From the NCBI RefSeq assembly GCF_964355755.1, contig NC_092670.1:114201-178200 (forward strand): DNA of 64,000 nucleotides, read 5' to 3'. Below, in pieces: positions 12,666-61,778 of the stretch. A program made the translations under genes and the position numbers. How positions within the stretch are numbered: position 1 is the first letter of the stretch; the number at the start of each line of letters is the position of its first letter. The DNA is from Antedon mediterranea. Taxonomy: Eukaryota > Animalia > Echinodermata. The notes beneath the pieces are model-generated. The model saw nothing but the letters and a program-made list of their open reading frames with translations, had not been told where the DNA came from and searched no databases.

Positions 12666-13126
12666 CTGTTTATACAAGGTAGAAGCTCATTATCTTCATT
12701 TTTCATTATTATTTCGTTGTTAGGCTTACATGTTAATAAATTACATTTAACAAATTTTGGTTTGGGTAAACTATGTGTTTGAGAAATAGGTTGAGAATAT
12801 CGCGGGAATTTTAAGATGTATAAATGTAAACGGTTCATTAAAAGGTCTGGTACAGCTTCGGATGTTTTCACATAAGACTTATCAACTATTAGGTTAGAGA
12901 ACATAGTGGTTGCCTCACTAAACCGCTGACATACATACGCACGGTGGCCGACGACGTATCAAAATAAGGAACTACTACTACTAATTACACAACTACACAC
13001 ATCTGTATTTAGGAAATGTGGCTATGATACTACAGATGTATAACCGAATCGTCTAGATTATTCGTTTCTAAGTCGGATCAATTTTTAAATGGGTAAATTT
13101 AGAAGAAGAAAAAAAGACACACTTAC

Positions 13127-14230
13127 CTAACACATCATAAGTTGAAGTAGGAAATTTTTCGGTTGTTCCAATGTGGTTCTCGTAATGCGTAGAAGGTTGA
13201 GGTATGTATTCTTTTTCGGTAGTGGATGCTTTGGTTGTTCCAATGTGGTCCTCGTAATGTGTAGAAGGTTGAGGTATGTATTCTTTTTCGGTAGTAGTGG
13301 ATGGTTCGGTTGTAACAATGTGGTCCTCGTAATGCGTAGAAGGTTGAGGTATGTATTCTTTTTCGGTAGTAGATGTTTCGGTTGTTCCAATGTGGTCCTC
13401 GTAATGCGTAGAAGGTTGAGGTATGTATTCTTTTTTGGTAGTGGATGCTTCGGTTGTAACAATGTGGTCCTCGTAATGTGTAGAAGGTTGAGGTATGTAT
13501 TCTTTTTCGGTAGTGGATGGTTCGGTTGTTCCAATGTGGTCCTCGTAATGCGTAGAAGGTTGAGGTATGTATTCTTTTTTGGTAGTGGATGGTTCGGTTG
13601 TTCCAATGTGGTCCTCGTAATGCGTAGAAGGTTGAGGTATATATTCTTTTTTAGTAGTGGATGCTTTGGTTGTAACAATGTGGTCCTCGTAATGCGTAGA
13701 AGGTTGAGGTATGTATTCTTTTTTAGGTGTGGATGGTTCGGTTGTTCCAATGTGGTCCTCGTAATGTGTAGAAGGTTGAGGTATGTATTCTTTTTTGGTA
13801 GTGGATGCTTCGGTTGTTCCAATGTGGTCCTCGTAATGCGTAGAAGGTGTAGGTATATATTCTTTTTTGGTAGTGGATGCTTCGGTTGTAACAATGTGGT
13901 CCTCGTAATGCGTAGAAGGTTGAGGTATATATTCTTTTTTGGTAGTGGATGCTTCGGTTGTAACAATGTGGTCCTCGTAATGTGTAGAAGGTTGAGGTAT
14001 GTATTCTTTTTTGGTAGTGGATGCTTCGGGATTCAATCCATTGCAATAGCGTTCAACTGTTCCAGCATAAGGACAAGAAATTCCACTGCCATCGTCTGTC
14101 GCGACAAACCACTGTCCTTCTGGACACGAATATCGTCTTACTATGTTAGACATACATATAAGGCCTGACTGGCAATCCTGGTCATCATTGTAGAAGGCTA
14201 TCACAGTTGTTTCTAGCGAAGCACAATGGC
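13127..14230 (-). CDS. Mucin/peritrophin-like protein exon 6 (CBM14-like domain 4 + ~12 x 24-aa Thr-rich repeat)
   Basis: ttttag|...|gtaagt, 1104 nt, phase 1-1; HCASL...DCQSGLIC...SCPEGQWF...SC...YC, then TTEASTTKKEYIPQPSTHYEDHI(G/V) repeats. Confidence 0.88.
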
Positions 14231-14864
14231 CTAAAACAAATTGAAATGTTCACCGTGTCACCTTTAGTCAGTAAGTATTCAAGAATGTGGGATTGTGATC
14301 GATTTATAATTTCATTCATTTTCTTTTCATTGATAATCGAACATGTAAAAATGTCAACATATATAATAGGGTATAGTTGCGTACGCTAAGTGTTTTGATA
14401 ATGGAACAACAGGTAATCAAAATAGAATGGAGAAACATTGGTTAAAGAAACACGATTGCAATATCTGATAATATTACTAAGTTAATGGCTGTATTATATC
14501 AGTCAAGTAATCAGATGATGTTTTGCCCAAACTCTGAAAATAATAAATTGTGATAATAGGCCCACTTATGAAGTATAAGGGGCTTATTTATGAACAAGTT
14601 TTCGGGTAGATCTCGAACGCAATCTAGACCCATAGACTGGAATAATTGATACCTCTTACCACCAAGCTTTGTTCTGATTATTAGTGTTATATTCAAAATA
14701 AGCAGCAAGTATTACAGCAATATGTTGTTAGTAATACCAAGTAGTACCTGTAAATGATTACATCATGGAATGCCAGGTGATTTCCAACTGAACTTCATAG
14801 TTGTGCAAAGCATTATCTTATAAGATGATTATTATACAGCTAAAATATCCGTTAAAATACTCAC

Positions 14865-16940
14865 TTTCCAAAGAACTATAGTCAGTTGTTACATCAATGT
14901 GGTCCTCGTAATGCGTAGAAGGTTCAGGTATGTATTCTTTTTCTGTAGTGGATGCTTCGGTTGTTCCAATGTGGTCCTCGTAATGTGTAGAAGGTTGAGG
15001 TATGTATTCTTTTTTGGTAGTGGATGATTCGGTTGTTCCAATGTGGTCCTCGTAATGTGTAGAAGGTTCAGGTATGTATTCTTTTTCGGTAGTGGATGGT
15101 TCGGTTGTTCCAATGTGGTCCTCGTAATGTGTAGAAGGTTGAGGTATATATTCTTTTTTGGTAGTGGATGCTTTGGTTGTTCCAATGTGGTCCTCGTAAT
15201 GTGTAGAAGGTTGAGGTATGTATTCTTTTTTGGTAGTGGATGGTTCGGTTGTTCCAATGTGGTCCTCGTAATGCGTAGAAGGTTCAGGTATGTATTCTTT
15301 TTTGGTAGTGGATGTTTCGGTTGTTCCAATGTGGTCCTCGTAATGCGTAGAAGGTTGAGGTATGTATTCTTTTTTGGTAGTGGATGATTCGGTTGTTCCA
15401 ATGTGGTCCTCGTAATGTGTAGAAGGTTCAGGTATGTATTCTTTTTCGGTAGTTGATGGTTCGGTTGTTCCAATGTGGTCCTCGTAATGGGTAGAAGGTT
15501 GAGGTATATATTCTTTTTTTGTAGTGGATGCTTTGGTTGTTCCAATGTGGTCCTCGTAGTGTGTAGAAGGTTGAGGTATGTATTCTTTTTTGGTAGTGGA
15601 TGGTTCGGTTGTTCCAATGTGGTCCTCGTAATGCGTAGAAGGTTGAGGTATGTATTCTTTTTTGGTAGTGGATGTTTCGGTTGTTCCAATGTGGTCCTCG
15701 TAATGCGTAGAAGGTTGAGGTATGTATTCTTTTTTGGTAGTGGATGGTTCGGTTGTTCCAATGTGGTCCTCGTAATGTGTAGAAGGTTGAGGTATGTATT
15801 CTTTTTTGGTAGTGGATGGTTCGGTTGTAACAATGTGGTCCTCGTAATGCGTAGAAGGTTGAGGTATATATTCTTTTTTGGTAGTGGATGCTTCGGTTGT
15901 AACAATGTGGTCCTCGTAATGCGTAGAAGGTTGAGGTATGTATTCTTTTTTGGTAGTGGATGCTTCGGTTGTAACAATGTGGTCCTCGTAATGCGTAGAA
16001 GGTTGAGGTATGTATTCTTTTTTGGTAGTGGATGCTTCGGTTGTTCCAATGTGGTCCTCGTAATGCGTAGAAGGTTGAGGTATGTATTCTTTTTTGGTAG
16101 TGGATGGTTCGGTTGTTCCAATGCGGTCCTCGTAATGCGTAGAAGGTTGAGGTATGTATTCTTTTTCGGTAGTGGATGCTTCGGTTGTTCCAATGTGGTC
16201 CTCGTAATGCGTAGACGGTTGAGGTATGTATTCGTTTTCGGTAGTGGATGTTTCGGTTGTTCCAATGCGGTCCTCGTAATGCGTAGAAGGTTGAGGTATG
16301 TATTCTTTTTCGGTAGTGGATGCTTCGGTTGTTCCAATGCGGTCCTCGTAATGCGTAGAAGGTTGAGGTATGTATTCTTTTTCGGTAGTGGATGGTTCGG
16401 TTGTTCCAAGGTGGTCCTCGTAATGCGTAGAAGGTTGAGGTATGTATTCTTTTTCGGTAGTGGATGGTTCGGTTGTTCCAATGTGGTCCTCGTAATGTGT
16501 AGAAGGTTGAGGTATGTATTCTTTTTCGGTAGTGGATGCTTCGGTTGTAACAATGTGGTCCTCGTAATGCGTAGAAGGTTGAGGTATGTATTCTTTTTTG
16601 GTAGTGGATGGTTCGGTTGTTCCAATGTGGTCCTCGTAATGCGTAGAAGGTTGAGGTATGTATTCTTTTTTGATAGTGGATGCTTCGGTTGTTCCAATGT
16701 GGTCCTCGTAATGCGTAGAAGGTTGAGGTATGTATTCTTTTTTGGTAGTGGATGCTTCGGTTGTTCCAATATCTTGTATATTTTCTTCATAATCGCAAAT
16801 ACCCTCTGCTTGATTGAACACTAATGACCACGGACATTTCATTAACCAAAATCGTTCAGATTCTGAGCATTGGTAATATGTTGAAATATCGTATGGATTT
16901 GCATACAGCCCTTCTTTACCTTCTTCTGGACACACAAATG
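14865..16940 (-). CDS. Mucin/peritrophin-like protein exon 5 (CBM14-like domain 3 + ~26 x 24-aa repeat)
   Basis: aaatag|...|gtgagt, 2076 nt, phase 1-1; CPEEGKEGLYANPYDISTYYQC...KCPWSLVFNQAEGICDY, then 72-bp repeats. Confidence 0.88.
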
Positions 16941-17314
16941 CTATTTAAATAAAAAGTTAGTTTAAGTCATTGACATATTCACATTAGAACCCCTCCTTTG
17001 GGAATCCCCTATTCAGTGGACACCCATCAAGGAGACATCTTCACATGGGATGAGGAGAAATAACACTAACGGTTTGGGACACCCCTATTCAGGAGGACAT
17101 CCTGATCCCTCAAGGACATCTTCACACGAGATGAGGAGAAAGGGGCATTAAAGTGATAATGATATTATGATAATTATATTATTATGTAAGTGGACACATT
17201 CATTTTCGAAATGCTTCTACTTTTTACAATCGCTTAAGTTGGATTTATATTCTGCATAGTTTTCGTTGACGTACGAGATTAACTATAAAAATGTACAAAT
17301 TACTTGGAACTCAC

Positions 17315-21862: not shown

Positions 21863-22726
21863 TTAAGAAGTACCGTACCGCGGTAATAGGTCATTGACAT
21901 TGATTCATACTACCATTATGCTACCACACGTCAACTCTAACATGAACAAACAATCACCTTTCAACAAACCATTTACTTTATATAGAATTGTTACGCAAAG
22001 TGTTTTGGGGTTTTTTTCGAATAAAAAAGTGTTAGGGTTAAAAAGATGGGGCCCCCGCCGATAAATCAAGGGATTCGCCTTCGCTCGTCTTAAAAAAATC
22101 TCCTTTCCATTCCGACTTTTAACACTAAAACATATGGCTTAGCACCTTCACTTCTGCTGCCTCTCGCTTATGGAATGACCTAATAAACCCGCCTCTATTA
22201 GATCATGTTCGTCATCTTTTTTTTTCAGATTGAGCTCTTTCATACCTTTGATCACTTACTGCTGGAATAATTGGCGCGTTCTAAATTCGTACTATTATTA
22301 TTATTATATTATTAAGGTGAGGTGCTTTTAAGCAATTCAAACAATTTAGCCTTATAAGTTATAATTTTGTTTTAAAATATAATAGATCTAAACAATTCTA
22401 TGAACAGCAACCGATCCCGAGTAATTGTGGAGATTTGAGTCACGTTGCTCAGTAGGCCTACACTATCAGATCTTCCTATGATACTCCGTGTGAAAACCGA
22501 TGGGCGTTTGGGAATGCCGATAAAAATGAGACTTTGTTGTTGCCTCGTGTGAACTTCTCTTATTCAAGTGGCTGTTACGTCAGAGGAAGGTTAGTTGGTA
22601 GACTACTATAGTGTGAAAGGGAATGCCGATGCAAATGAGACTTTGTTGTCATGTGAACTTCCATTATTCAAGGGGCGTTTACGTCAGAGGATTGTTGTAA
22701 TATCCGTTGTTTATTACCGTCTTAAG

Positions 22727-22905
22727 ATGATTCTAATGCTTAGTATTACAGTCGCGTTGCAGTTTTGCTTTGTTTCATGTTATCATGGTGACAAGAATGT
22801 TATTATTGATCTAAGCTATTCTTACGATGAGGAAACCTTGTTTTGGCCAGGGAGCGATCGTTTTGTTCATACGATTGTTCAGCGGGGTCCAACCGGTGTT
22901 TTCTG
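22727..22905 (+). CDS. Cyclase family (KynB kynurenine formamidase / isatin hydrolase-like) exon 1, with signal peptide
   Basis: MILMLSITVALQFCFVSCYHG then IIDLSYSYDEETLFWPG (cyclase N-terminal motif); donor TG|GTAAGT. Confidence 0.88.
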
Positions 22906-23234
22906 GTAAGTCATTCACGGTTAGGAAAACGCAACCCGTACGTTCAAGATCATTTAGTTGCAACTATTATTATAGCTAGGCCCCTATAGTATTATTATTA
23001 TGATTCTTAAGTTGGCCACATAATAGTAAGCACTATTACCACCAGCTATATGTAGTGTAGTTATTTTATGATAAAATAAATAAATTAATCTTAGTTTTTT
23101 ACAGTTCCCATTACAAACATTGATAGTAAGCGCCTACTACCCGCCCAGAGAGCCAGGCTCTACACATGCACATAGTGGTAAAATTCGATCGAGATTTTTC
23201 CCCCAAAATATTAAAATTATCCTTATAACATTAA

Positions 23235-23578
23235 AGATGTATTGTCCCCCTGAAAAAAATAATTCTTAAAAAGATTTTTGTTGAAAATTCCATTTTAATG
23301 TAACATAATAGTAAGTTATCCACTTTGACCAAAAATTGGATCGAAAAAAAAAATGTATTTACCTGAAAAAATGTAATTTAAAGCAAAAAATGGTCAAATT
23401 GGCTGCCAGCCAATGGATTTTTGGTTGAATTAAACCATTTATTTTGTCATTTTACAAGTGAAAACATTATTTTTTTTTTCTATGGAAGTGATTAACTTTA
23501 TTAAAACTACAAAATAACAAATTCAAAGTCTGATTTAATTAATCTTTATTTTTCATGTTTTTGGGGGACAATACATCT
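23235..23578. mobile_element. Kolobok-like MITE in the cyclase intron
   Basis: TTAA|AGATGTATTGTCCCCC ... GGGGGACAATACATCT|TTAT; related partial copies at ~51635-51895 and (inverted) ~53480-53690. Confidence 0.8.
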
Positions 23579-23750
23579 TTATTGGTCCCTCAAAACATGA
23601 AAAATCAAAAGAAATTATTTCGCTTATTAAAAAGGAAAAATAAAGAGTTAAATTTTACAGATTTAGGCTTTAGGAGGAAAAATGCTAAACAATTGTTTTT
23701 TTAATATGGCCAGTCGTTAAATAATTTCAGATTTTATCTTGTATTTCAAG

Positions 23751-24450
23751 GTATGAGTCAAATAAATTTGAAATGGGCGAACATTCAGGAACACACATAG
23801 ATGCCCCTTCACACTTTTCTGAGGGTAAACAGAGGATCCATGATATACCAAACGAACATTTATTTGGCCCTGGTATTAAGGTGGATATAACAGAAAAGGC
23901 ATCCATAAATTCTGATGCATTACTCGAAGTTGAAGATTTAAAGAGCTGGGAGGAAGAAAATGGCATCATACCAAATGGTGCTATCTTAATGGTGTTTACG
24001 GATTGGGGACGATTTTACCCAAATCGTACAGCATACTTTGGCTCGGATCGTAACGACTCTTTCACAGACGAAAACGGGAAGTCGCTACTTCATTTTCCAG
24101 GGGTTAGTCCAGAAGCTGCCAATTGGTTGATTATTAATCGTGATGTCGTTGGGGTTGGTATTGATACACCATCTATTGACTATGGTCAGAGCCTTACTTT
24201 TTCTACACATGTAAAATTGTATGAACAAAACATATATGGATTGGAAAACGTTGCTAACCTTGATCAGCTGCCGACAACAGGGAGCACGGTTTACGCTTTA
24301 CCTATCAAGATTAAGGATGGCAGTGGTGCTCCAGTTAGACTGTTTGCTGTTGCTGATGATGTTGGTACAAATAGTGCAACATCAATGCCATTCTCCTTCT
24401 TCATTATTTTCTTCTTAAGCATCATATCTCTTTCTTTTAATCATAATTAG
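23751..24450 (+). CDS. Cyclase family protein exon 2 (protein ~292 aa, hydrophobic C-terminal tail)
   Basis: HSGTHIDAPSH = HxGTHxDxPxH metal-binding motif; HFPG, GIDTPSID, ENVANL, GSGAPVR. Confidence 0.93.
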
Positions 24451-25743: not shown

Positions 25744-25815
25744 TCAGAAGGACCTCACTCCAGACAGTTTTCGGATCTCTTCATATGACAGCCAAAAGAC
25801 TAGTGACCAAGGTGC
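25744..25815 (-). CDS. SLC25A27: Mitochondrial uncoupling protein 4, exon 9 (last)
   Basis: APWSLVFWLSYEEIRKLSGVRSF*, like human [23 protein letters not shown]. Confidence 0.93.
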   Translation of the reverse strand, partial: APWSLVFWLSYEEIRKLSGVRSF

Positions 25816-25938
25816 CTATTAAAGAATACAAACAAAAATATTCATCTTTATACAAATAGGTATATAAAATCACTGTTGTGCTTCTCGCAAGGTTTATTCC
25901 TTAATAACAAAAGATTAAAGTAAGTGTAATACTTCAGC

Positions 25939-26390
25939 AGTTATTTGTACAATGTAGGTACAGTTACTGGTTCAGTTATTTGTACAATGTAGGTACAGTT
26001 ACTGGTTCAGTTATTTGTACAATGTAGGTACAGTTACTGGTTCAGTTATTTGTACAATGTAGGTACAGTTACTGGTTCAGTTATTTGTACAATGTAGGTA
26101 CAGTTACTGGTTCAGTTATTTGTACAATGTAGGTACAGTTACTGGTTCAGTTATTTGTACAATGTAGGTACAGTTACTGGTTCAGTTATTTGTACAATGT
26201 AGGTACAGTTACTGGTTCAGTTATTTGTACAATGTAGGTACAGTTACTGGTTCAGTTATTTGTACAATGTAGGTACAGTTACTGGTTCAGTTATTTGTAC
26301 AATGTAGGTACAGTTACTGGTTCAGTTATTTGTACAATGTAGGTACAGTTACTGGTTCAGTTATTTATACATTGTACAGTAGTTACTGGC
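25939..26390. repeat. 35-bp minisatellite (~12 near-identical copies) in UCP4 intron 8
   Basis: TTCAGTTATTTGTACAATGTAGGTACAGTTACTGG. Confidence 0.95.
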
Positions 26391-26546
26391 TCAAAACCTG
26401 AACAAAGGTACATGGTGTATGCTTAGGGATGTGTTACTAAAGTTGAATAATAAAACACAACTTTTGAGATAAATTTTGTATTGCCTATTGCCTTGAGTGC
26501 AAACTGAACAATCAAAAAGGAAAATCAAATGACTATGATTTCTCAC

Positions 26547-26742
26547 CATTCTCGCCCAGATAGGAAAAAATCCTTTATACAAAGCACCAAAACCTTCTTG
26601 ACCTACTGTTTTCCGTAAACAATCCAACGATGATTTGTAAATTAAGCCTCTACCATTGGCATCGGTAGGTTGGTTCATAATTCGTGTTTTAATCACATCT
26701 GCTGGTGTTCCTAAAATAGCAGCAACAAGACCTGAACATCCA
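26547..26742 (-). CDS. SLC25A27: UCP4 exon 8
   Basis: [25 protein letters not shown]...[16 protein letters not shown]; carrier signature PxDxxKxR. Confidence 0.95.
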
Positions 26743-26848
26743 CTGTAAATAAGTAAACCCATTACATATGAGGGAATCGTTTTCTGTTTACCAGTAGTAA
26801 TTTACCAGATGTTGATGTGATTTTATAATTGGACGTCTCCAACATTAC

Positions 26849-26933
26849 CTTGCAAGGGTGTGTGTAAGCCAGTTATCTGTCAGCACTGTATTTCTTAAGA
26901 TTATTTGTTTTGTTGTATCATACGTAGCTAAGT
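26849..26933 (-). CDS. SLC25A27: UCP4 exon 7
   Basis: DLATYDTTKQIILRNTVLTDNWLTHTLAS; AG/GT flanked. Confidence 0.93.
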
Positions 26934-27257
26934 CTATAAATAATAATAGAATACTCAAATACAGTTTTAGCCATGTTATTTTCTCGTGTCAATGTTTGTA
27001 AAAATGGTATTTTCTGTAGACTCTCGTCATTGTACAATTCTTGTATTTTAAAAAATAATTCTTTAGATATTTTTAACTGTAATTTTTCTCAATTTAAATG
27101 TATTATTAATGAAATTATTTAAATTTTCTTTTTCATTTGTATATATTTATATTGGCTCATATTTTATAGTTTAGCTTTTATTTTCAACCTGTTATTGGTG
27201 TTTTACACTGTTGGTTTGATATAAAGAATAAAAAAAAAAAAAAAAATTTATATTTAC

Positions 27258-27370
27258 CTCCCATATTTACTAATGCTGCTCTTTGGACATTTGGTACCCA
27301 GCCCTTCCATAAACCTCGCACTCCTCCCTGTTTTACAATTTGAGTAAATGCATGGAATGTTCCTTTAACT
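27258..27370 (-). CDS. SLC25A27: UCP4 exon 6
   Basis: [37 protein letters not shown]. Confidence 0.95.
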
Positions 27371-27490
27371 CTAATATTAAATAAATTAAGATTTATAATT
27401 TGATTTTTAATAATAAAAAAACAATATAAGTAAAATCATGTCAAAAAAATAATTTAATTACTACATTAAGACAACATGTAAAAACACAAC

Positions 27491-27613
27491 CTCTGTGGTT
27501 TACCCTCCAATCGTCTCCGACCTTCCATCTGCATTTGAACTTTTACTAGGTCAGTTGGACTAGCAATGAATTGGCCAATAGCACCGGCTGCGAGGCCTCC
27601 GCAAACAGCTTTC
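27491..27613 (-). CDS. SLC25A27: UCP4 exon 5
   Basis: [41 protein letters not shown]. Confidence 0.95.
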
Positions 27614-27745: not shown

Positions 27746-27830
27746 CAAACAGGAAAAGTTCCATCTTCATTTTTACCCAATACATTATCACGAATATATT
27801 CATATGCACCCATTCTACAACCAGTGTATA
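27746..27830 (-). CDS. SLC25A27: UCP4 exon 4
   Basis: tttttttag|...|gtatgt; VYTGCRMGAYEYIRDNVLGKNEDGTFPVW. Confidence 0.93.
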
Positions 27831-30800
27831 CTAAAAAAACAGAAACAAAACATTATATATTCATATGCACTCATTCTACAACCAGTGTATAGGAAAGAAA
27901 CAGAAACAAAACATTATATATTCATATGCACTCATTCTACAACCAGTGTATACTAAAGAAACAGAAACAAAACATTATATATTCATATGCACCCATTCTA
28001 CAACCAGTGTATACTAAAGAAACAGAAACAAAACATTATATATTCATATGCACTCATTCTACAACCAGTGTATACTAAAGAAACAGAAACAAAACATTAT
28101 ATATTCATATGCACTCATTCTACAACCAGTGTATACTAAAGAAACAGAAACAAAACATTATATATTCATATGCACTCATTCTACAACCAGTGTATACTAA
28201 AGAAACAGAAACAAAACATTATATATTCATATGCACTCATTCTACAACCAGTGTATACTAAAGAAACAGAAACAAAACATTATATATTCATATGCACTCA
28301 TTCTACAACCAGTGTATAGGAAAGAAACAGAAACAAAACATTATATATTCATATGCACTCATTCTACAACCAGTGTATACTAAAGAAACAGAAACAAAAC
28401 ATTATATATTCATATGCACTCATTCTACAACCAGTGTATACTAAAGAAACAGAAACAAAACATTATATATTCATATGCACTCATTCTACAACCAGTGTAT
28501 AGGAAAGAAACAGAAACAAAACATTATATATTCATATGCACTCATTCTACAACCAGTGTATAGGAAAGAAACAGAAACAAAACATTATATATTCATATGC
28601 ACTCATTCTACAACCAGTGTATACTAAAGAAACAGAAACAAAACATTATATATTCATATGCACTCATTCTACAACCAGTGTATAGGAAAGAAACAGAAAC
28701 AAAACATTAAATATTCATATGCACTCATTCTACAACCAGTGTATAGGAAAGAAACAGAAACAAAACATTATATATTCATATGCACTCATTCTACAACCAG
28801 TGTATACTAAAGAAACAGAAACAAAACATTATATATTCATATGCACTCATTCTACAACCAGTGTATACTAAAGAAACAGAAACAAAACATTATATATTCA
28901 TATGCACTCATTCTACAACCAGTGTATAGAAAAGAAACAGAAACAAAACATTATATATTCATATGCACTCATTCTACAACCAGTGTATACTAAAGAAACA
29001 GAAACAAAACATTATATATTCATATGCACTCATTCTACAACCAGTGTATAGGAAAGAAACAGAAACAAAACATTATATATTCATATGCACTCATTCTACA
29101 ACCAGTGTATAGGAAAGAAACAGAAACAAAACATTATATATTCATATGCACTCATTCTACAACCAGTGTATAGGAAAGAAACAGAAACAAAACATTATAT
29201 ATTCATATGCACCCATTCTACAACCAGTGTATACTAAAGAAACAGAAACAAAACATTATATATTCATATGCACTCATTCTACAACCAGTGTATAGGAAAG
29301 AAACAGAAACAAAACATTATATATTCATATGCACTCATTCTACAACCAGTGTATACTAAAGAAACAGAAACAAAACATTATATATTCATATGCACTCATT
29401 CTACAACCAGTGTATAGGAAAGAAACAGAAACAAAACATTATATATTCATATGCACTCATTCTACAACCAGTGTATACTAAAGAAACAGAAACAAAACAT
29501 TATATATTCATATGCACTCATTCTACAACCAGTGTATAGGAAAGAAACAGAAACAAAACATTATATATTCATATGCACTCATTCTACAACCAGTGTATAG
29601 GAAAGAAACAGAAACAAAACATTATATATTCATATGCACCCATTCTACAACCAGTGTATACTAAAGAAACAGAAACAAAACATTATATATTCATATGCAC
29701 TCATTCTACAACCAGTGTATAGGAAAGAAACAGAAACAAAACATTATATATTCATATGCACTCATTCTACAACCAGTGTATACTAAAGAAACAGAAACAA
29801 TACATTATATATTCATATGCACTCATTCTACAACCAGTGTATAGGAAAGAAACAGAAACAAAACATTATATATTCATATGCACTCATTCTACAACCAGTG
29901 TATACTAAAGAAACAGAAACAAAACATTATATATTCATATGCACTCATTCTACAACCAGTGTATAGGAAAGAAACAGAAACAAAACATTATATATTCATA
30001 TGCACTCATTCTACAACCAGTGTATACTAAAGAAACAGAAACAAAACATTATATATTCATATGCACTCATTCTACAACCAGTGTATACTAAAGAAACAGA
30101 AACAAAACATTATATATTCATATGCACTCATTCTACAACCAGTGTATACTAAAGAAACAGAAACAAAACATTATATATTCATATGCACTCATTCTACAAC
30201 CAGTGTATACTAAAGAAACAGAAACAAAACATTATATATTCATATGCACTCATTCTACAACCAGTGTATAGGAAAGAAACAGAAACAAAACATTATATAT
30301 TCATATGCACTCATTCTACAACCAGTGTATAGGAAAGAAACAGAAACAAAACATTATATATTCATATGCACTCATTCTACAACCAGTGTATAGGAAAGAA
30401 ACAGAAACAAAACATTATATATTCATATGCACTCATTCTACAACCAGTGTATACTAAAGAAACAGAAACAAAACATTATATATTCATATGCACCCATTCT
30501 ACAACCAGTGTATAGGAAAGAAACAGAAACAAAACATTATATATTCATATGCACTCATTCTACAACCAGTGTATACTAAAGAAACAGAAACAAAACATTA
30601 TATATTCATATGCACTCATTCTACAACCAGTGTATACTAAAGAAACAGAAACAAAACATTATATATTCATATGCACCCATTCTACAACCAGTGTATAGGA
30701 AAGAAACAGAAACAAAACATTATATATTCATATGCACTCATTCTACAACCAGTGTATAGGAAAGAAACAGAAACAAAACATTATATATTCATATGCACTC

Positions 30801-33800
30801 ATTCTACAACCAGTGTATACTAAAGAAACAGAAACAAAACATTATATATTCATATGCACTCATTCTACAACCAGTGTATAGGAAAGAAACAGAAACAAAA
30901 CATTATATATTCATATGCACTCATTCTACAACCAGTGTATAGGAAAGAAACAGAAACAAAACATTATATATTCATATGCACTCATTCTACAACCAGTGTA
31001 TACTAAAGAAACAGAAACAAAACATTATATATTCATATGCACCCATTCTACAACCAGTGTATAGGAAAGAAACAGAAACAAAACATTATATATTCATATG
31101 CACTCATTCTACAACCAGTGTATAGGAAAGAAACAGAAACAAAACATTATATATTCATATGCACTCATTCTACAACCAGTGTATACTAAAGAAACAGAAA
31201 CAAAACATTATATATTCATATGCACTCATTCTACAACCAGTGTATACTAAAGAAACAGAAACAAAACATTATATATTCATATGCACCCATTCTACAACCA
31301 GTGTATAGGAAAGAAACAGAAACAAAACATTATATATTCATATGCACTCATTCTACAACCAGTGTATACTAAAGAAACAGAAACAAAACATTATATATTC
31401 ATATGCACCCATTCTACAACCAGTGTATAGGAAAGAAACAGAAACAAAACATTATATATTCATATGCACTCATTCTACAACCAGTGTATAGGAAAGAAAC
31501 AGAAACAAAACATCATATATTCATATGCACTCATTCTACAACCAGTGTATACTAAAGAAACAGAAACAAAACATTATATATTCATATGCACTCATTCTAC
31601 AACCAGTGTATACTAAAGAAACAGAAACAAAACATTATATATTCATATGCACTCATTCTACAACCAGTGTATAGGAAAGAAACAGAAACAAAACATTATA
31701 TATTCATATGCACTCATTCTACAACCAGTGTATAGGAAAGAAACAGAAACAAAACATTATATATTCATATGCACTCATTCTACAACCAGTGTATAGGAAA
31801 GAAACAGAAACAAAACATTATATATTCATATGCACTCATTCTACAACCAGTGTATACTAAAGAAACAGAAACAAAACATTATATATTCATATGCACTCAT
31901 TCTACAACCAGTGTATAGGAAAGAAACAGAAACAAAACATTATATATTCATATGCACTCATTCTACAACCAGTGTATAGGAAAGAAACAGAAACAAAACA
32001 TTATATATTCATATGCACTCATTCTACAACCAGTGTATAGGAAAGAAACAGAAACAAAACATTATATATTCATATGCACTCATTCTACAACCAGTGTATA
32101 CTAAAGAAACAGAAACAAAACATTATATATTCATATGCACTCATTCTACAACCAGTGTATACTAAAGAAACAGAAACAAAACATTATATATTCATATGCA
32201 CTCATTCTACAACCAGTGTATAGGAAAGAAACAGAAACAAAACATTATATATTCATATGCACTCATTCTACAACCAGTGTATAGGAAAGAAACAGAAACA
32301 AAACATTATATATTCATATGCACTCATTCTACAACCAGTGTATAGGAAAGAAACAGAAACAAAACATTATATATTCATATGCACTCATTCTACAACCAGT
32401 GTATACTAAAGAAACAGAAACAAAACATTATATATTCATATGCACTCATTCTACAACCAGTGTATAGGAAAGAAACAGAAACAAAACATTATATATTCAT
32501 ATGCACTCATTCTACAACCAGTGTATAGGAAAGAAACAGAAACAAAACATTATATATTCATATGCACCCATTCTACAACCAGTGTATACTAAAGAAACAG
32601 AAACAAAACATTATATATTCATATGCACTCATTCTACAACCAGTGTATAGGAAAGAAACAGAAACAAAACATTATTATACAGATATTGACTGCTTAGAGG
32701 TTAAATATAAGATTTGACATCCCCGAGGGAATGATATTAAGTTCGAGGGAATATATATTTCCCGAAGCGCCAGCTGAGGGAAATATATAATCCCCGAGAA
32801 CTTAATATCATTCCCGAGGGGATGTCAAATCTTATATTTAACCGATATAAAAGGCAATATCTGTTATATTATATAGCCAAGAACAAGTCTGCTGGGTTGG
32901 GTGAAGCTAGGCTAGGCCTCCTATTATTTGTATTGTATTTAAAACAAGCCTGCCTAGACACCTTACCTTGCGAAGAATAATATACAGATAATTACTAATT
33001 AATGATTCCTTGGCAATAAAATATTCACTTAGGCCTAGGTCGTTTAAATTAACAGAAGAATTTCCATCAATAAGCCTATTAATAATAATATTATAATCAG
33101 GTAGGCCGAATAAACAATTCGTCTTCTCTCGATCTTCGAGGAGCCGAATCACCGGATGTTCAGCGCGTACTAGTTACTAGGTTACTACCGTGAGTATTGA
33201 CCAATCACAAACGGTGTTTCATCACATTTAGGGTGGACTTATAACAAATGAGGGCGCTATGTATGCATAGCTTAAATAGTTTAGAAGATTAATTTCTTCA
33301 AGCAAATTCCGTGGCCCAGCGGATGAAACGTTGTCTTGCGATGGAGTGACAATTCCACCCGAGTTCAAGATCGAGTAGATGACTTTTGTTTATTTATCGG
33401 CAACGCGAGTGTTGGCACACGAAAATTACACAGTCAATATCATCGTACTCGAGAATCTATATGTTTAATGACAGGGGACACGATAATTACGCGAAAATTA
33501 CACAGTCAATATCATCGTTCTCGAGGATATATACGATTTACGATCCTCGCAGCGGTAGTCATGTGATGCAGTTTCAACCAATCACGTTAGCGTATTTACA
33601 TAGGCTATGTAATATATATTCATATGCACTCATTCTACAACCAGTGTATAGGAAAGAAACAGAAACAAAACATTATATATTCATATGCACTCATTCTACA
33701 ACCAGTGTATAGGAAAGAAACAGAAACAAAACATTATATATTCATATGCACTCATTCTACAACCAGTGTATAGGAAAGAAACAGAAACAAAACATTATAT

Positions 33801-34595
33801 ATTCATATGCACTCATTCTACAACCAGTGTATAGGAAAGAAACAGAAACAAAACATTATATATTCATATGCACTCATTCTACAACCAGTGTATAGGAAAG
33901 AAACAGAAACAAAACATTATATATTCATATGCACTCATTCTACAACCAGTGTATAGGAAAGAAACAGAAACAAAACATTATATATTCATATGCACTCATT
34001 CTACAACCAGTGTATACTAAAGAAACAGAAACAAAACATTATATATTTATATGCACTCATTCTACAACCAGTGTATACTAAAGAAACAGAAACAAAACAT
34101 TATATATTCATATGCACTCATTCTACAACCAGTGTATACTAAAGAAACAGAAACAAAACATTATATATTCATATGCACTCATTCTACAACCAGTGTATAC
34201 TAAAGAAACAGAAACAAAACATTATATATTCATATGCACTCATTCTACAACCAGTGTATACTAAAGAAACAGAAACAAAACATTATATATTCATATGCAC
34301 TCATTCTACAACCAGTGTATAGGAAAGAAACAGAAACAAAACATTATATATTCATATGCACTCATTCTACAACCAGTGTATACTAAAGAAACAGAAACAA
34401 AACATTATATATTCATATGCACTCATTCTACAACCAGTGTATACTAAAGAAACAGAAACAAAACATTATGATCATTTATATGCACTCATTCTACAACCAG
34501 TGTATAGGAAAGAAACAGAAACAAAACATTATATATTCATATGCACCCATTCTACAACCAGTGTATAGGAAAGAAACAGAAACAAAACATTATGA
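27795..34595 (-). repeat. 61-bp tandem array (~95 copies, interrupted at ~32676-33613) made of the UCP4 exon-4 acceptor + the exon start
   Basis: Sense unit ATAATGTTTTGTTTCTGTTTCTTT(AG/CC)|TATACACTGGTTGTAGAATG(A/G)GTGCATATGAATAT. Confidence 0.95.
32676..33613. mobile_element. ~0.94-kb insertion in the 61-bp array, with a long internal hairpin (family uncertain, possibly Crypton-like non-autonomous)
   Basis: Splits one unit within TATA; ends TTATACAG.../...CTATGTAA; imperfect palindrome at 32679-32864. Confidence 0.75.
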
Positions 34596-34963
34596 TCATT
34601 TATATGTTGGATGTTTTTATTTACAAGCATGTTCAATTTCCAGAAATACTAATTGAATTTTTGTCCTACATTGCTAAAAAACATTTTATTTATGTACACT
34701 AACTGGTATTTTACTAACTTGTTCACACTGCCTTTGCAGAAGCTGTTTGTAGGCCCCATTATGTAATTATCGTAATATTAAGGCCCCGAAATCTGTCCGA
34801 CCTGGGGGCCTCCACAGCCCCCTAGCCCCTGCCAATAGGTGCATGCAAAATCATCCATACAGACCTACAGTACCAACTTTCTTCAATGTCGGCAGGTATA
34901 TAAATAATAATAGTAATAAGACTAAATGTACAATTTACAAAATCTAAATAAATCTGTACTGAC

Positions 34964-35026
34964 CAATATGTCTGTATACTGCTGGTGTAACTCCCTGCCA
35001 TAATTTTAAGATGCCTTCTTCTTCAA
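34964..35026 (-). CDS. SLC25A27: UCP4 exon 3
   Basis: [21 protein letters not shown]. Confidence 0.93.
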
Positions 35027-35126: not shown

Positions 35127-35243
35127 CAACTCCTGCAGCTGTTCGCATCATTCCACGATAAGGGGCAGAATTCTGACTATTTTTTACCCCGATTTCACCT
35201 TGAATTTGAAGACGGGTCTTAGTCAAATCCAGTGGAAATGTTC
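35127..35243 (-). CDS. SLC25A27: UCP4 exon 2
   Basis: [17 protein letters not shown]...[12 protein letters not shown]. Confidence 0.95.
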
Positions 35244-35877: not shown

Positions 35878-35971
35878 CTGTTTCAGCCACAGTTGCAGCA
35901 CATGCTGATAAAACATATTTGAATATAGTACTGTCAGGATTCATCCAGGTCTGATTTAAAATACCTGGCAT
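35878..35971 (-). CDS. SLC25A27: UCP4 first coding exon (full model 948 nt, 315 aa)
   Basis: MPGILNQTWMNPDSTIFKYVLSACAATVAET, donor G|GTACGG. Confidence 0.88.
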
Positions 35972-45890: not shown

Positions 45891-47152
45891 AGACACGTTT
45901 CGCGCTCGCGAGGTCACCGTCAGTTTGACCTTTTAGTGGGTATACAATGGTAAACAAACACAGCGAGAGGTATGTTAAAGCATGGGAGAACTGAGAGATG
46001 ATCATCTTAAAAAGCAATCGTCAAAACTAGCCTTTTGATGGAATGGATGTTATTTATTTTCTAAACTTATGTTTTATATTCACTGTAGAATTATTTGGGC
46101 ATTTGGTTCGGAATCATCGACTTTATTTATGTATTGTCATTTTTGGTTTGACACATATATATTACGGTGCATTTAATACATGTTAACTGTTGATTTTATT
46201 TACAAATGTTGCGTAAATATATTAATTATTATCTTTCATTCTTCTTCATGCTCCTATTGCATCTTCCATGTATTATGTGATGTTCTTCTTCATGCTCCTA
46301 TTGCATCTTCCATGTATTATGTGATGTTCTTCTTCATGCTCCTATTGCATCTTCCATGTATTATGTGATGTTCTTCTTCATGCTCCTATTGCATCTTCCA
46401 TGTATTATGTGATGTTCTTCTTCATGCTCCTATTGCATCTTCCATGTATTATGTGATGTTCTTCTTCATGCTCCTATTGCATCTTCCATGTATTATGTGA
46501 TGTTCTTCTTCATGCTCCTATTGCATCTTCCATGTATTATGTGATGTTCTTCTTCATGCATCTGTTGCATCTTCCATGTATTATGTGATGTTCTTCTTCA
46601 TGCTCCTATTGCATCTTCCATGTATTATGTGATGTTCTTCTTCATGCATCTGTTGCATCTTCCATGTATTATGTGATGTTCTTCTTCATGCATCTGTTGC
46701 ATCTTCCATGTATTATGTGATGTTCTTCTTCATGCTCCTATTGCATCTTCTATGTATTATGTGATGTTCTTCGGCGCTTAAACAAACACCCAAGCCTAGT
46801 AGACGAAGTACCGCATCAGGCAACGCCACCGGGCGGGCGGAGAGACCCGAGCACATCGTGGACGTACCTTTCCTTGAAAAATTTCCAAGATTTTGCGCCA
46901 CTATCCTTCGGAGCCGACGCAAACCACTCAGCAAGTGTTTGAAAATTAAAAACAGGAATATTATTCAGTGATTTTGTGTAGTTAAATTCACGATTTATCC
47001 AACATATACAACATTTATGATGCACCTTGCAACAAAAGCACTCGGCAGTCGCCATTTCGCTATGCTTCAACACGCACTAGGCGAGAGGTGTTCGATTTGT
47101 TTACAAATCTATACCCACTATTTCTGATTGGTCGCGAGCGAGAAACGTGTCT
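45891..47152 (-). mobile_element. ISL2EU-like deletion derivative nested in the foldback
   Basis: AT|AGACACGTTTCGCGCTCGCGA ... TCGCGAGCGAGAAACGTGTCT|AT; remnant ...AKSWKFFKERYVHDV resembles the N-terminus of the ISL2EU exonuclease ORF (from recall). Confidence 0.7.
46238..46772. repeat. 44-bp minisatellite (~12 copies) inside the ISL2EU-like element
   Basis: TTCTTCTTCATGCTCCTATTGCATCTTCCATGTATTATGTGATG. Confidence 0.95.
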
Positions 47153-55443: not shown

Positions 55444-58400
55444 TTCCACATATCTGTTTCTAACCAGGGAGCATTACATCAAAGGATTTCATCTAATCTA
55501 AGATTGCTTGATTTCCACATATCTGTTTCTAACCAGGGAGCATTACATCAAAGGATTTCATCTAATCTAAGATTGCTTGATTTCCACATATCTGTTTCTA
55601 ACCAGGGAGCATTACATCAAAGGATTTCATCTAATCTAAGATTGCTTGATTTCCACATATCTGTTTCTAACCAGGGAGCATTACATCAAAGGATTTCATC
55701 TAATCTAAGATTGCTTGATTTCCACATATCTGTTTCTAACCAGCGAGCATTACATCAAAGGATTTCATCTAATCTAAGATTGCTTGATTTCCACATATCT
55801 GTTTCTAACCAGCGAGCATTACATCAAAGGATTTCATCTAATCTAAGATTGCTTGATTTCCACATATCTGTTTCTAACCAGCGAGCATTACATCAAAGGA
55901 TTTCATCTAATCTAAGATTGCTTGATTTCCACATATCTGTTTCTAACCAGGGAGCATTACATCAAAGGATTTCATCTAATCTAAGATTGCTTGATTTCCA
56001 CATATCTGTTTCTAACCAGCGAGCATTACATCAAAGGATTTCATCTAATCTAAGATTGCTTGATTTCCACATATCTGTTTCTAACCAGGGAGCATTACAT
56101 CAAAGGATTTCATCTAATCTAAGATTGCTTGATTTCCACATATCTGTTTCTAACCAGGGAGCATTACATCAAAGGATTTCATCTAATCTAAGATTGCTTG
56201 ATTTCCACATATCTATTTCTAACCAGGGAGCATTACATCAAAGGATTTCATCTAATCTAAGATTGCTTGATTTCCACATATCTGTTTCTAACCAGCGAGC
56301 ATTACATCAAAGGATTTCATCTAATCTAAGATTGCTTGATTTCCACATATCTGTTTCTAACCAGGGAGCATTACATCAAAGGATTTCATCTAATCTAAGA
56401 TTGCTTGATTTCCACATATCTGTTTCTAACCAGGGAGCATTACATCAAAGGATTTCATCTAATCTAAGATTGCTTGATTTCCACATATCTGTTTCTAACC
56501 AGCGAGCATTACATCAAAGGATTTCATCTAATCTAAGATTGCTTGATTTCCACATATCTGTTTCTAACCAGGGAGCATTACATCAAAGGATTTCATCTAA
56601 TCTAAGATTGCTTGATTTCCACATATCTGTTTCTAACCAGGGAGCATTACATCAAAGGATTTCATCTAATCTAAGATTGCTTGATTTCCACATATCTGTT
56701 TCTAACCAGCGAGCATTACATCAAAGGATTTCATCTAATCTAAGATTGCTTGATTTCCACATATCTGTTTCTAACCAGGGAGCATTACATCAAAGGATTT
56801 CATCTAATCTAAGATTGCTTGATTTCCACATATCTATTTCTAACCAGGGAGCATTACATCAAAGGACTTCATCTAATCTAAGATTGCTTGATTTCCACAT
56901 ATCTGTTTCTAACCAGGGAGCATTACATCAAAGGATTTCATCTAATCTAAGATTGCTTGATTTCCACATATCTGTTTCTAACCAGGGAGCATTACATCAA
57001 AGGATTTCATCTAATCTAAGATTGCTTGATTTCCACATATCTGTTTCTAACCAGGGAGCATTACATCAAAGGATTTCATCTAATCTAAGATTGCTTGATT
57101 TCCACATATCTGTTTCTAACCAGGGAGCATTACATCAAAGGATTTCATCTAATCTAAGATTGCTTGATTTCCACATATCTATTTCTAACCAGGGAGCATT
57201 ACATCAAAGGATTTCATCTAATCTAAGATTGCTTGATTTCCACATATCTGTTTCTAACCAGGGAGCATTACATCAAAGGATTTCATCTAATCTAAGATTG
57301 CTTGATTTCCACATACCGTATATTTCGGTGTATAAGTCGCACTTTTGACACGCAAATTTGACCTCTAAATTAAGGGTGCGTCTTATACACCGAACATAAA
57401 TGCCTCACCACACAGATTGTACATAGGCCTAGGCTATCGTCACCTCGTTTGCTAGGCCTGAGTAGGCTAGGCCTAGCTACAGTAACTAACGTAACGGCAA
57501 CCTGCTTCTGCCTAGTTTTCAAGGCATTTTAGCATGATGTTATACTAAATATGATGAAAAGATTTGTTCATTATAGCGATAAAATTTCATTTTTAAATGT
57601 TTAAGTACGATTGGAATAGTATTTATTTATACAGTAGTTATACGCACGATCGCCGTACCCCCAGCGCAAGCCCTTCTTGGCGGCCACATGGTGTACGGTA
57701 TTCGACTAGTATATTCTCCAGGTGATTATAGCATGGACCTAGCGTACACACTTCTCGGATACATAGATACTAATCGAATACGATTGTCCGTGAAAACGTG
57801 CGCCCTCTTGAAATGATCGAGCGAGGCTAGCCCACACGTACGTGTTACACACACGGTCATGCACTCGATGTTGCGGCTGTTGAGGCTGGGCGCGGCCGAG
57901 CCTAGGTAAGAAAAAACCTAAATAAAGGACGCCGTTGCAGATATAACAAAATATATTATTACAATAATATTGATTACAATTTAAAAAAACATTGTTTTGA
58001 TGAAATATAAGGTGCGTCTTATACACCGACGATATAAAAAATACCGATATTTTACTCTCAGTTAGGGGGTGCGTCTTATACACAGGTGCGACTTATATAC
58101 CGAAATATACGGTATCTGTTTCTAACCAGCGAGCATTACATCAAAGGATTTCATCTAATCTAAGATTGCTTGATTTCCACATATCTGTTTCTAACCAGGG
58201 AGCATTACATCAAAGGATTTCATCTAATCTAAGATTGCTTGATTTCCACATATCTGTTTCTAACCAGGGAGCATTACATCAAAGGATTTCATCTAATCTA
58301 AGATTGCTTGATTTCCACATATCTATTTCTAACCAGCGAGCATTACATCAAAGGATTTCATCTAATCTAAGATTGCTTGATTTCCACATATCTGTTTCTA

Positions 58401-59208
58401 ACCAGGGAGCATTACATCAAAGGATTTCATCTAATCTAAGATTGCTTGATTTCCACATATCTGTTTCTAACCAGGGAGCATTACATCAAAGGATTTCATC
58501 TAATCTAAGATTGCTTGATTTCCACATATCTGTTTCTAACCAGGGAGCATTACATCAAAGGATTTCATCTAATCTAAGATTGCTTGATTTCCACATATCT
58601 GTTTCTAACCAGGGAGCATTACATCAAAGGATTTCATCTAATCTAAGATTGCTTGATTTCCACATATCTGTTTCTAACCAGCGAGCATTACATCAAAGGA
58701 TTTCATCTAATCTAAGATTGCTTGATTTCCACATATCTGTTTCTAACCAGCGAGCATTACATCAAAGGATTTCATCTAATCTAAGATTGCTTGATTTCCA
58801 CATATCTGTTTCTAACCAGGGAGCATTACATCAAAGGATTTCATCTAATCTAAGATTGCTTTATTTCCACATATCTGTTTCTAACCAGGGAGCATTACAT
58901 CAAAGGATTTCATCTAATCTAAGATTGCTTGATTTCCACATATCTGTTTCTAACCAGGGAGCATTACATCAAAGGATTTCATCTAATCTAAGATTGCTTG
59001 ATTTCCACATATCTGTTTCTAACCAGCGAGCATTACATCAAAGGATTTCATCTAATCTAAGATTGCTTGATTTCCACATATCTGTTTCTAACCAGGGAGC
59101 ATTACATCAAAGGATTTCATCTAATCTAAGATTGCTTGATTTCCACATATCTGTTTCTAACCAGGGAGCATTACATCAAAGGATTTCATCTAATCTAAGA
59201 TTGCTTGA
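55444..59208. repeat. 69-bp tandem array (~43 copies) interrupted by a MITE
   Basis: TTCCACATATCTGTTTCTAACCAG(G/C)GAGCATTACATCAAAGGATTTCATCTAATCTAAGATTGCTTGAT. Confidence 0.95.
57316..58112. mobile_element. Tc1/mariner (Tc2-like) MITE, 797 bp
   Basis: TA|CCGTATATTTCGGTGTATAAGTCGCAC ... GTGCGACTTATATACCGAAATATACGG|TA; the TA duplication is confirmed against the empty repeat unit; internal GGTGCGTCTTATACAC repeats. Confidence 0.92.
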
Positions 59209-60887
59209 TCCATGGTAATCTTTAATACTTAATCCATTCAAGTCAATTGGGATAGGTGTAGAGTTAGGGTTGAATTTACCAATCACATTTGTTACAGGTT
59301 ATAGCCAATGAAATCCAGTTGTTTTAGTAATGCAAATTTCAGTGAGATTTTATCCCCAGAATTTTAAAGAATGAATATTAAAAACTCAAATTATTTTAGG
59401 ACACAGGAGAAAGAACAACAATGTAAACTGAAAAGTTAAAAATAACAAATAGTTATATTTGTTTGCAATATATTGAATATTACATAGTTTGAGGTGTTTT
59501 TGTATGTAATTTATATTATTGAACATTTTTGCTTTAACTCTGTTTGATTCATCTTAGTACTTAAGCTAATCTTTGCTTTAAGCATTGGTAATCTCTCTTC
59601 TATCCCTTTTAATCTTCACAATTCTTGCCTAAGCCATTTCTCACAGGTATGTGTGAACCTGCATTGCTTTATAAGTTCAATTATTTATGATTTCTTTAAT
59701 GATATAATTAATTTATTATTAGTCAATAGGTCAAGTAGTAACCAAATGCTAACCTACTGCAGGTTATACTAAAAAGCACAATTACATTTTTTCATCAAAC
59801 ATACAGATTAAATATGTACCCACTTTGTCTAGCATTAGCAACATATATAATTTGATTGAATAGTCACCACTCCAAAAACTGCAACTAGAATATCGCTAAA
59901 ATATCCTAAATTGCTACTAAACTATACTAACAAGACAAAACAAGTTTTCCTACAGACATTTTTTTGCGACGGTTCATGGAAGTCAAGGGAATGTGTATTA
60001 GGTTTTATTGATCTGCTTCTTAATAATGATCTGCTTCTTGATAAATATTTTATAAATATGTTATGAGTTGTCCCTTTTTGTAAAAAATGTATTGATTGAC
60101 ATTTAGCAATTAATATTCAAGTTGTGTTTTGTGGCTGTAGATCTGCTTCAGTCATTTACCCGTAATGACAACTGACTTTTAAATTACCAGCATTCACATA
60201 AATCAAAAATGTAGATTATCCTAAATTTTCTCTATGAACATGTTTTATTTACAAATGAATTTGATAAAATGATAATGCATACTAATACACTAATAAATAA
60301 AGTATAGTCCCTGCTTTTATTGAGAAATTATCGGTGTGTTCTATACTATTTGAAAGTTAGTCATAAGTTATTCATTTGCCTAAAGCATGTCATTATACCT
60401 GTCAATAGTTCACAACTCAAGCTTAATTAGAAATGGTACAACAATGTAAGGAGAAGTTTAATCTGTGATAATTTGTACAGGCTGTGGTAAATGCCTAGAG
60501 CTGCTGCCTACATTTAGTCTTAGACTTCCATGTCTAAATTATTGTAAATTTAGCTTGTGATGTGTGTAAGAAAGTTTCCTGTTGTTAAACTGTCAGTGTC
60601 ATTTAACCTCTTTTTTTCAGTTAGTTTTTGAGTGATTGTGTTTTGCAGTTATGGGAAAGCCAAAATTTTAAAAGATCTTCAACCTAGCATTCAAAAAAGG
60701 TTACAAACTGTTGCAAGCATGAGATAAACAGATTGTAAAGTTCAAAATGAATGTATCTACAGCAGTGTGAGATTAGAGGTTACAAATAGTTATAAGCATT
60801 AGATATTTAAACAGATTGTAAAATGAGTGTATCTACAGCAGTGTGAGATTCTCTTGAAAAGTAAAGTTGTACTGCGCCTCCTCAGGT

Positions 60888-61778
60888 TCCTTTGCAGTAT
60901 TGACCTGACCATGGGTATGATCCTTTGCAGTATTGACCTGACCATGGGTATGATCCTTTGCAGTATTGACCTGACCATGGGTATGATCCTTTGCAGTATT
61001 GACCTGACCATGGGTATGATCCTTTGCAGTATTGACCTGACCATGGGTATGATCCTTTGCAGTATTGACCTGACCGTGGGTATGATCCTTTGCAGTATTG
61101 ACCTGACCATGGGTATGATCCTTTGCAGTATTGACCTGACCATGGGTATGATCCTTTGCAGTATTGACCTGACCGTGGGTATGATCCTTTGCAGTATTGA
61201 CCTGACCGTGGGTATGATCCTTTGCAGTATTGACCTGACCGTGGGTATGATCCTTTGCAGTATTGAACTGACTATGGGTATGATCCTTTGCAGTATTGAC
61301 CTGACCATGGGTATGATCCTTTGCAGTATTGACCTGACCATGGGTATGATCCTTTGCAGTATTGACCTGACCATGGGTATGATCCTTTGCAGTATTGACC
61401 TGACCATGGGTATGATCCTTTGCAGTATTGACCTGACCATGGGTATGATCCTTTGCAGTATTGACCTGACCATGGGTATGATCCTTTGCAGTATTGACCT
61501 GACCATGGGTATGATCCTTTGCAGTATTGACCTGACCGTGGGTATGATCCTTTGCAGTATTGACCTGACCGTGGGTATGATCCTTTGCAGTATTGACCTG
61601 ACCGTGGGTATGATCCTTTGCAGTATTGACCTGACCATGGGTATGATCCTTTGCAGTATTGACCTGACCATGGGTATGATCCTTTGCAGTATTGACCTGA
61701 CCGTGGGTATGATCCTTTGCAGTATTGACCTGACCATGGGTATGATCCTTTGCAGTATTGACCTGACCATGGGTATGA
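60888..61778. repeat. 33-bp minisatellite (~27 copies)
   Basis: TCCTTTGCAGTATTGACCTGACC(A/G)TGGGTATGA. Confidence 0.95.

Follow-up and report, generated by a model that had tools for sequence, protein, structure and literature searches.

A large lancelet-type mirage repeats the intron 3-exon 4 junction of UCP4 in the crinoid Antedon mediterranea

Intron 3 of the UCP4 gene of the crinoid Antedon mediterranea is filled with copies of its own 3' splice site, some with an intact acceptor dinucleotide (AG) and others with CC in its place. This raises the question of how the gene is still spliced correctly, and whether the mixture of AG and CC copies reflects selection, sets the yield of UCP4 mRNA, or is a by-product of array turnover. 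The original prediction for this locus held that selection may have inactivated competing acceptors and that the AG:CC ratio or order could tune the yield of productive UCP4 mRNA. Here we follow up both ideas in the window, the whole stretch of 64,000 nucleotides that was analysed (Table 1).

The host gene is well supported by a nine-exon model that translates exactly to the protein P0002 (315/315 aa), named 'mitochondrial uncoupling protein 4-like [Antedon mediterranea]'. The exon 8 match is at 100% identity, and most of the named proteins among the 120 matches listed for this exon are UCP4 or SLC25A27. The predicted end of exon 3 at 34964 agrees with the gene model and an RNA contig. The other seven introns of the gene measure 100 to 731 nt, compared with 7133 nt for intron 3. 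A second intronic array is located in intron 8 (25938-26376, 35 bp x 12.5), away from the junctions, and all of its scored units (11/11) are identical.

Table 1. Positions of the UCP4 exons, the junction array and neighbouring features within the 64-kb window
Feature	Position	Strand	Basis
UCP4 (SLC25A27-like) exon 1, coding part	35878-35971	-	protein identity
UCP4 exon 2	35127-35243	-	gene model; RNA contig from exon 3 into exon 2 sequence (loose end 35027)
UCP4 exon 3; the phase 1 intron 3 begins with its donor at 34963	34964-35026	-	gene model, RNA contig
UCP4 intron 3, 7133 nt (about 0.4 kb if the array is subtracted)	27831-34963	-	gene model
Block 1 of the array: decoys 1 to 16, with 61-bp units	33614-34591	-	tandem-repeat and unit anchoring
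Acceptor dinucleotide of copy 1, CC here and AG in organism B; the intron context upstream is ancestral	34568-34569	-	
Non-repetitive insert of 940 bp that separates copy 16 from copy 17	32674-33613	.	unit anchoring
Array block 2, decoy units 17-95	27855-32673	-	tandem-repeat and unit anchoring
Acceptor dinucleotide (CC) of copy 95, the decoy next to the real site; its use would give an exon of 146 nt	27892-27893	-	
Authentic acceptor site of intron 3; AG dinucleotide 27831-27832, C-to-T change at -6 (27836) found in no decoy	27831-27854	-	
UCP4 exon 4, 85 nt, of which the repeat unit contains the first 37	27746-27830	-	protein identity, RNA
UCP4 exons 5-9: 27491-27613, 27258-27370, 26849-26933, 26547-26742, 25744-25815	25744-27613	-	gene model
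Gene tail-to-tail with UCP4	22595-24450	+	
72-bp repeats coding for 24-aa units rich in Thr, Glu and Pro, located between Cys-rich domains	13068-16944	-	
Syntaxin-8-like gene, six exons matching P0121	44960-54283	+	tblastn
Array of about 43 units of 69 bp, interrupted by an 800-bp element	55444-59209		
33-bp array, 27 units, acceptor-like TTTGCAG in each unit	60888-61778	+	

Anchoring on the start of exon 4, together with TRF, resolves the array (27794-34591, minus strand) into 96 head-to-tail units of 61 bp, which are the real acceptor and 95 decoys, with exon-4-start anchors from 27830 to 34567. Each unit consists of the last 24 nt of intron 3 and the first 37 nt of exon 4. The prediction of about 95 copies of a pyrimidine tract, an acceptor and some 35 nt of exon 4 was therefore accurate, and read depth agrees with the count. 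The copy-by-copy tabulation that had been proposed gives 50 CC, 44 AG and 1 TC among the decoys, in line with the predicted half, and the copy next to the real site (95, at 27891) and the two most 5' copies (1 and 2, at 34567 and 34506) are indeed CC. Copies 89-94, just upstream of this last CC copy, are all AG. The real site does stand apart in its T tract, with T for C at -6 in 1 of the 96 units of the assembly sequence. Within block 1, the junction of units 2 and 3 is 63 bp and carries ancestral upstream intron sequence. A second common variant affects base +20 of the exon, where 85 of the 95 decoys, among them 40 of the 44 AG decoys, have A, and the other 10 decoys and the real exon have G; the remaining differences are each confined to one or two units. 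The G-to-A change at +20 would replace Gly with Ser and makes a new AG, and a weak donor-like site at +21 loses its -1 G through it; nothing was seen that points to a function of this variant.

Recursive splice sites consist of an acceptor AG directly followed by a donor GT. In the unit, the AG is followed by TA, and GT occurs at -21, -16, -10, -1, +9, +12, and +21 (offsets of the script), which rules out recursive splicing. The insert that separates the two blocks is probably a mobile element, judging by 3 bp that seem to be a target duplication and by a foldback of 186 bp (32679-32864); a second copy was not found within the 64-kb window. A miRNA within the insert was rejected, as its four Rfam matches are all far below the gathering score.

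The copy number or the AG/CC mosaic could stem from mis-assembly or merged haplotypes, and we looked for signs of this in contigs from six of nine listed sequencing runs (X1, X3, X5, X6, X8, and X9), which cover the array at its two ends. X1 is the best-matching run and possibly the assembled sample, and thus not independent support. Its single-copy depth is 39.8, and the shared A-variant contigs (depths 3145 and 188) correspond to 79-84 A-variant units, compared with 82.7 expected from the assembly. The two acceptor forms are both deep in this run (2145 for the non-CC form, read as AG, and 1203 for CC), and the repeat unit recurs in X5, from another individual and another study. That no contig of these runs spans the array, and that the AG share by contig depth in X1 is 64% rather than the assembled 47%, leaves some room for an artefact, which we regard as extremely unlikely. 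If X1 is the assembled diploid, a 64% share would place the other haplotype at about 82% AG, with about 66-71 AG and 13-16 CC units as estimated from contig depth.

The history of the array can be approached through a related organism (B) that does not have it. In 2/2 DNA runs of this organism (X8 and X6, two samples), a contig at single-copy depth runs from exon 4 into the flank at 34568-34735, with AG at the copy-1 position and C at -6, and in X9, an RNA-like run, exons 3 and 4 are joined. The absence of the array from this relative suggests that it is young, and the AG and C of organism B indicate that CC at copy 1 and T at -6 are derived. The layout of the organism B contig further suggests that copy 1 descends from the old acceptor and that the last copy kept the full exon. 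Because the units are near-identical, we infer a gain in A. mediterranea rather than a loss in organism B. The array probably began as a duplication across the intron-exon junction, and the AT-rich look-alike sequences at both ends of the unit are a plausible seed for slippage.

Splicing to an intact decoy would abort the protein. As predicted, translation from a decoy would end within about two units: all 44 AG decoys lead to a stop 74 nt past the acceptor, in the second unit, which gives a 116-aa product and leaves five further exons downstream. Decoys at multiple-of-three distances also give the stop; there is thus no in-frame alternative, and in-frame decoy use was rejected. Decoy-spliced transcripts with such an early stop are expected to undergo nonsense-mediated decay (NMD).

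Evidence on actual splicing comes from X5 and X9, which were treated as RNA because their contigs join exons. In X5, an 805-nt contig (depth 43.2) joins 34964 to 27830 and continues unbroken through exon 7, and joints over introns 4, 5, and 7 are among those listed. The junctions from exon 3, which the original prediction had proposed to inspect, thus lead to the real site, and no joint from exon 3 into a decoy is among the X5 joints listed, in contigs that drop rare forms and for transcripts that NMD would deplete. In X5, the repeat itself is represented by one contig of 91 nt (AG/A form, depth 46.9) and the start of intron 3 by one of 172 nt (depth 3.5). Multiplied by many copies, this intron depth suffices to explain the depth of the repeat by unspliced intron, with depth being a poor measure. 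X3 also shows a single 91-nt repeat contig, though its sample carries both AG and CC, and the single form in X5 is therefore uninformative on the absence of CC. A separate X5 contig extends across intron 7 (26743-26848, 106 nt) at depth 55.3, compared with 67.3 for the spliced joint; introns 4 and 5 have no cover in X5, and intron 7 has none in the organism B run X9. Retention of intron 7 is possible in A. mediterranea.

These observations bear on the second idea, in which the amount of UCP4 pre-mRNA lost to NMD depends on how many copies are AG or CC, or on their order, and array alleles act as expression alleles that are possibly tissue-regulated. The AG:CC ratio seems to vary between haplotypes and every use of a decoy leads to an early stop, upstream of later junctions, as in AS-NMD. 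Further, two pseudo-donors are used in the human IFI6 (6-16) and CBS minisatellites, according to the available part of PMC1557585. However, the conservation that marks AS-NMD is missing, as neither organism B DNA run has the array. The X5 contig uses the real site, the joints listed for X5 include none into a decoy and its depths call for no decoy use, the order of the copies is random (see below), and the two haplotypes would differ as widely as 47% and about 82% AG. Such tuning is very unlikely, and this part of the original prediction found no support.

The order of AG and CC along the array does not depart from chance. We counted 49 runs of state, compared with 47.8 +/- 4.8 expected, and both a higher-order pattern (longest repeated pattern, P=0.39) and CC enrichment near either array end were rejected; a position test showed no trend (P=0.21). 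The acceptor and +20 variant sites are unlinked (P=0.75). Variants at intermediate frequency are common in the neighbourhood as well, since 6/7 other non-coding arrays of the window with at least seven scored units have a variant at 27-44%, and in the array at 46239-46772 this variant is also a doublet of adjacent bases. In this comparison, units with indels were dropped (12/51 in the first array), and two coding arrays and four with fewer than seven units were excluded. The random order and the intermediate variants of the other arrays speak against design. In a toy model, growth from one CC and one AG unit ended in a 20-80% mix in 45-49% of 400 simulations per setting. The model under-predicts shuffling (95th percentile of state runs 31-48, versus 49 observed), suggesting that real turnover includes heavy unit-level conversion.

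Continuing selection predicts that AG copies waste transcript, that CC spreads and is kept at the riskiest positions, and that the real site is strengthened. The commonest variant does fall on the splice signal: a doublet would coincide exactly with the AG by a chance of 1/60 and touch it by 3/60, and either of the two common variants would hit it by a chance of 0.08, all reckoned post hoc (P about 0.05-0.08). The derived T at -6 matches the acceptor profile of the window, built from 12 other acceptors, in which this base is T in 10/12 and C in 0/12. All 44 AG decoys break the frame, and loss of AG is also known from copies D3-D5 of the lancelet gene BflGb6. The position of the CC copies is less telling. 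Copies 1, 2, and 95 are the nearest competitors under intron and exon definition, but the probability that all three are non-AG is 0.15, and 8/10 of the last decoys and 7/10 of the first are AG. The second haplotype would carry about 66-71 AG copies, and organism B splices with C at -6. In addition, CC copies retain the pyrimidine tract and a branch-point-like sequence, with a further AG about 15-16 nt downstream, and may not be inert. We consider continuing selection unlikely as an account of the mosaic. From the original prediction, inactivation of competing acceptors is possible in view of the variant that destroys the AG, the CC of the copy with the ancestral intron context, and the T of the real site, and the argument from position is weak.

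A bolder combination of these ideas would make the locus a young splice-competition experiment under selection, in which the ancestral acceptor was lost (CC), the real one was sharpened (-6 T), and haplotypes with about 44 and about 70 AG decoys differ in the share of UCP4 transcripts that undergo NMD. If true, the array would be a repeat-coded expression allele whose internal mosaic, not its length, sets the output; we give this only a slim chance.

The most probable explanation is that the array is a young, tolerated 61-bp junction minisatellite whose AG:CC ratio and order are by-products and not a dial. It would have started with a 61-bp tandem duplication over the junction, aided by the AT-rich look-alike at both ends, which made the ancestral acceptor copy 1 and left the full exon in the last copy. 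The AG of one upstream copy would then have changed to CC once and early, a change that was perhaps favoured because use of a second acceptor at a distance of 61 nt puts the transcript out of frame. Both templates may later have been multiplied and mixed, through slippage, unequal exchange, and conversion between units, into a random mosaic that differs between haplotypes. With the intron now at 7 kb, exon 4 would be defined across its 85 nt, while the decoys comprise 37 nt of exon only and lack a good donor; the rare transcripts spliced to them would be removed by NMD. The T at -6 may sharpen the real site.

The array is probably tolerated because, with a long intron upstream of exon 4 and a short one downstream, the spliceosome is predicted to choose whichever acceptor is nearest to the donor of exon 4. 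For long introns, human data described in PMC9225289 point to an exon-centric proximity rule, and identical donors in F7 are functional but silent owing to their position in that of PMC1557585; by analogy, we carry the proximity rule over to a crinoid. One point weighs against this ease of choice. Copy 94 (AG) would define an exon of 207 nt, well within the exon-definition range, so that proximity alone must separate 85 from 207 nt. The location of the commonest variant on the AG and the consensus T unique to the real site both hint at some selection also under a tolerated minisatellite.

Tandem repeats of intron-exon boundaries have been described as 'mirages' in lancelets, where the available sections of the two papers concern the amphioxus globins BflGb6 and BflGb9 (PMC3087553) and PGBD5 (PMC3902484), cite further mirages in Adh3 and troponin C, and report that splicing is not disturbed. 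PMC3087553 also mentions, second-hand in the part available, somatic instability of the Adh3 mirage. The UCP4 array is a large mirage of the lancelet type. Its 96 head-to-tail units span an intron-exon boundary of the host gene, each joining the end of an intron to the start of the next exon; part of the copies keep the splice signal; and the extra copies are intronic, with the real site as the last copy and a normal mRNA, as seen in the contigs of one RNA-like run. As in BflGb6, where D3-D5 read GG, without AG, on haplotype 1 and all copies are AG on haplotype 2 (PMC3087553), some copies lost the AG and others keep it. Haplotypes of the amphioxus mirages differ in copy number, and for UCP4 contig depth points to a difference in composition, with none in length seen. 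The UCP4 array has 95 extra copies compared with 3-6 in BflGb6, and unlike the amphioxus mirages its units are near-identical, and the AG change is both the dominant polymorphism and a doublet. Its real site also bears a change seen in no decoy, an element has inserted among its copies, and its host is a crinoid. What sets this array apart is how large it is, how cleanly the AG position falls into two states, and that a relative shows the ancestral state.

Human minisatellites that span splice junctions are a second point of comparison. Variable repeats of this kind are listed for F7 intron 7 (37 bp), IFI6/6-16, CBS intron 13, LMNB2, and PDGF in the available part of PMC1557585. They likewise reiterate a splice site, and their pseudo-sites are described there as functional but mostly silent by position. 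The human repeats copy the donor (5-25 copies) and the used site is the first met in transcription, whereas the UCP4 array repeats the acceptor and the used site is the last. Variable boundary repeats in human segmental duplications can also supply cryptic splice sites, and those covered in the available text of PMC2812944 create new introns or alternative forms; in contrast, all UCP4 decoys lead to a stop, which leaves no room for a new intron or an in-frame alternative. A search of the literature on mirages and junction minisatellites, mostly in freely readable papers, found no description of the UCP4 array of Antedon.

The value of this locus is that of a natural test substrate, in which 44 intact acceptors, one intronic base different from the real one and met earlier, are passed over. 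As one animal seems to have both AG-rich and CC-rich alleles, the array could be used to measure the positional strictness of 3' splice-site choice. If loss of AG proves to be over-represented across independent mirages, this would indicate selection on the internal make-up of minisatellites.

By the summed TRF rows, tandem arrays with units of 33-96 bp make up about one third of the 64-kb window, suggesting that minisatellite birth is frequent here and that some land on splice junctions by chance. The six Syntaxin-8-like (STX8) exons found by tblastn overlap no array, and other arrays of the window were thus rejected as STX8 mirages; the last Syntaxin-8-like exons were not found within the 64-kb window. 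In the 69-bp array, the unit contains a run rich in pyrimidines that ends in CAG and is followed at once by a G/C variant; its final copy leads into a donor-like GTAAT. From these motifs, it is possibly another mirage, of a candidate exon that has no STX8 match. The 800-bp element within this array has 33-bp terminal inverted repeats (57310-57342 and 58086-58118). The last unit of the 33-bp array leads into a donor-like GAG-GTATG, and open frames are present on both strands. Among the neighbouring genes, the one with coding 72-bp repeats probably encodes a chitin-binding mucin or peritrophin-like protein, and the gene tail-to-tail with UCP4 is, by motif, presumably cyclase/kynurenine-formamidase-like.
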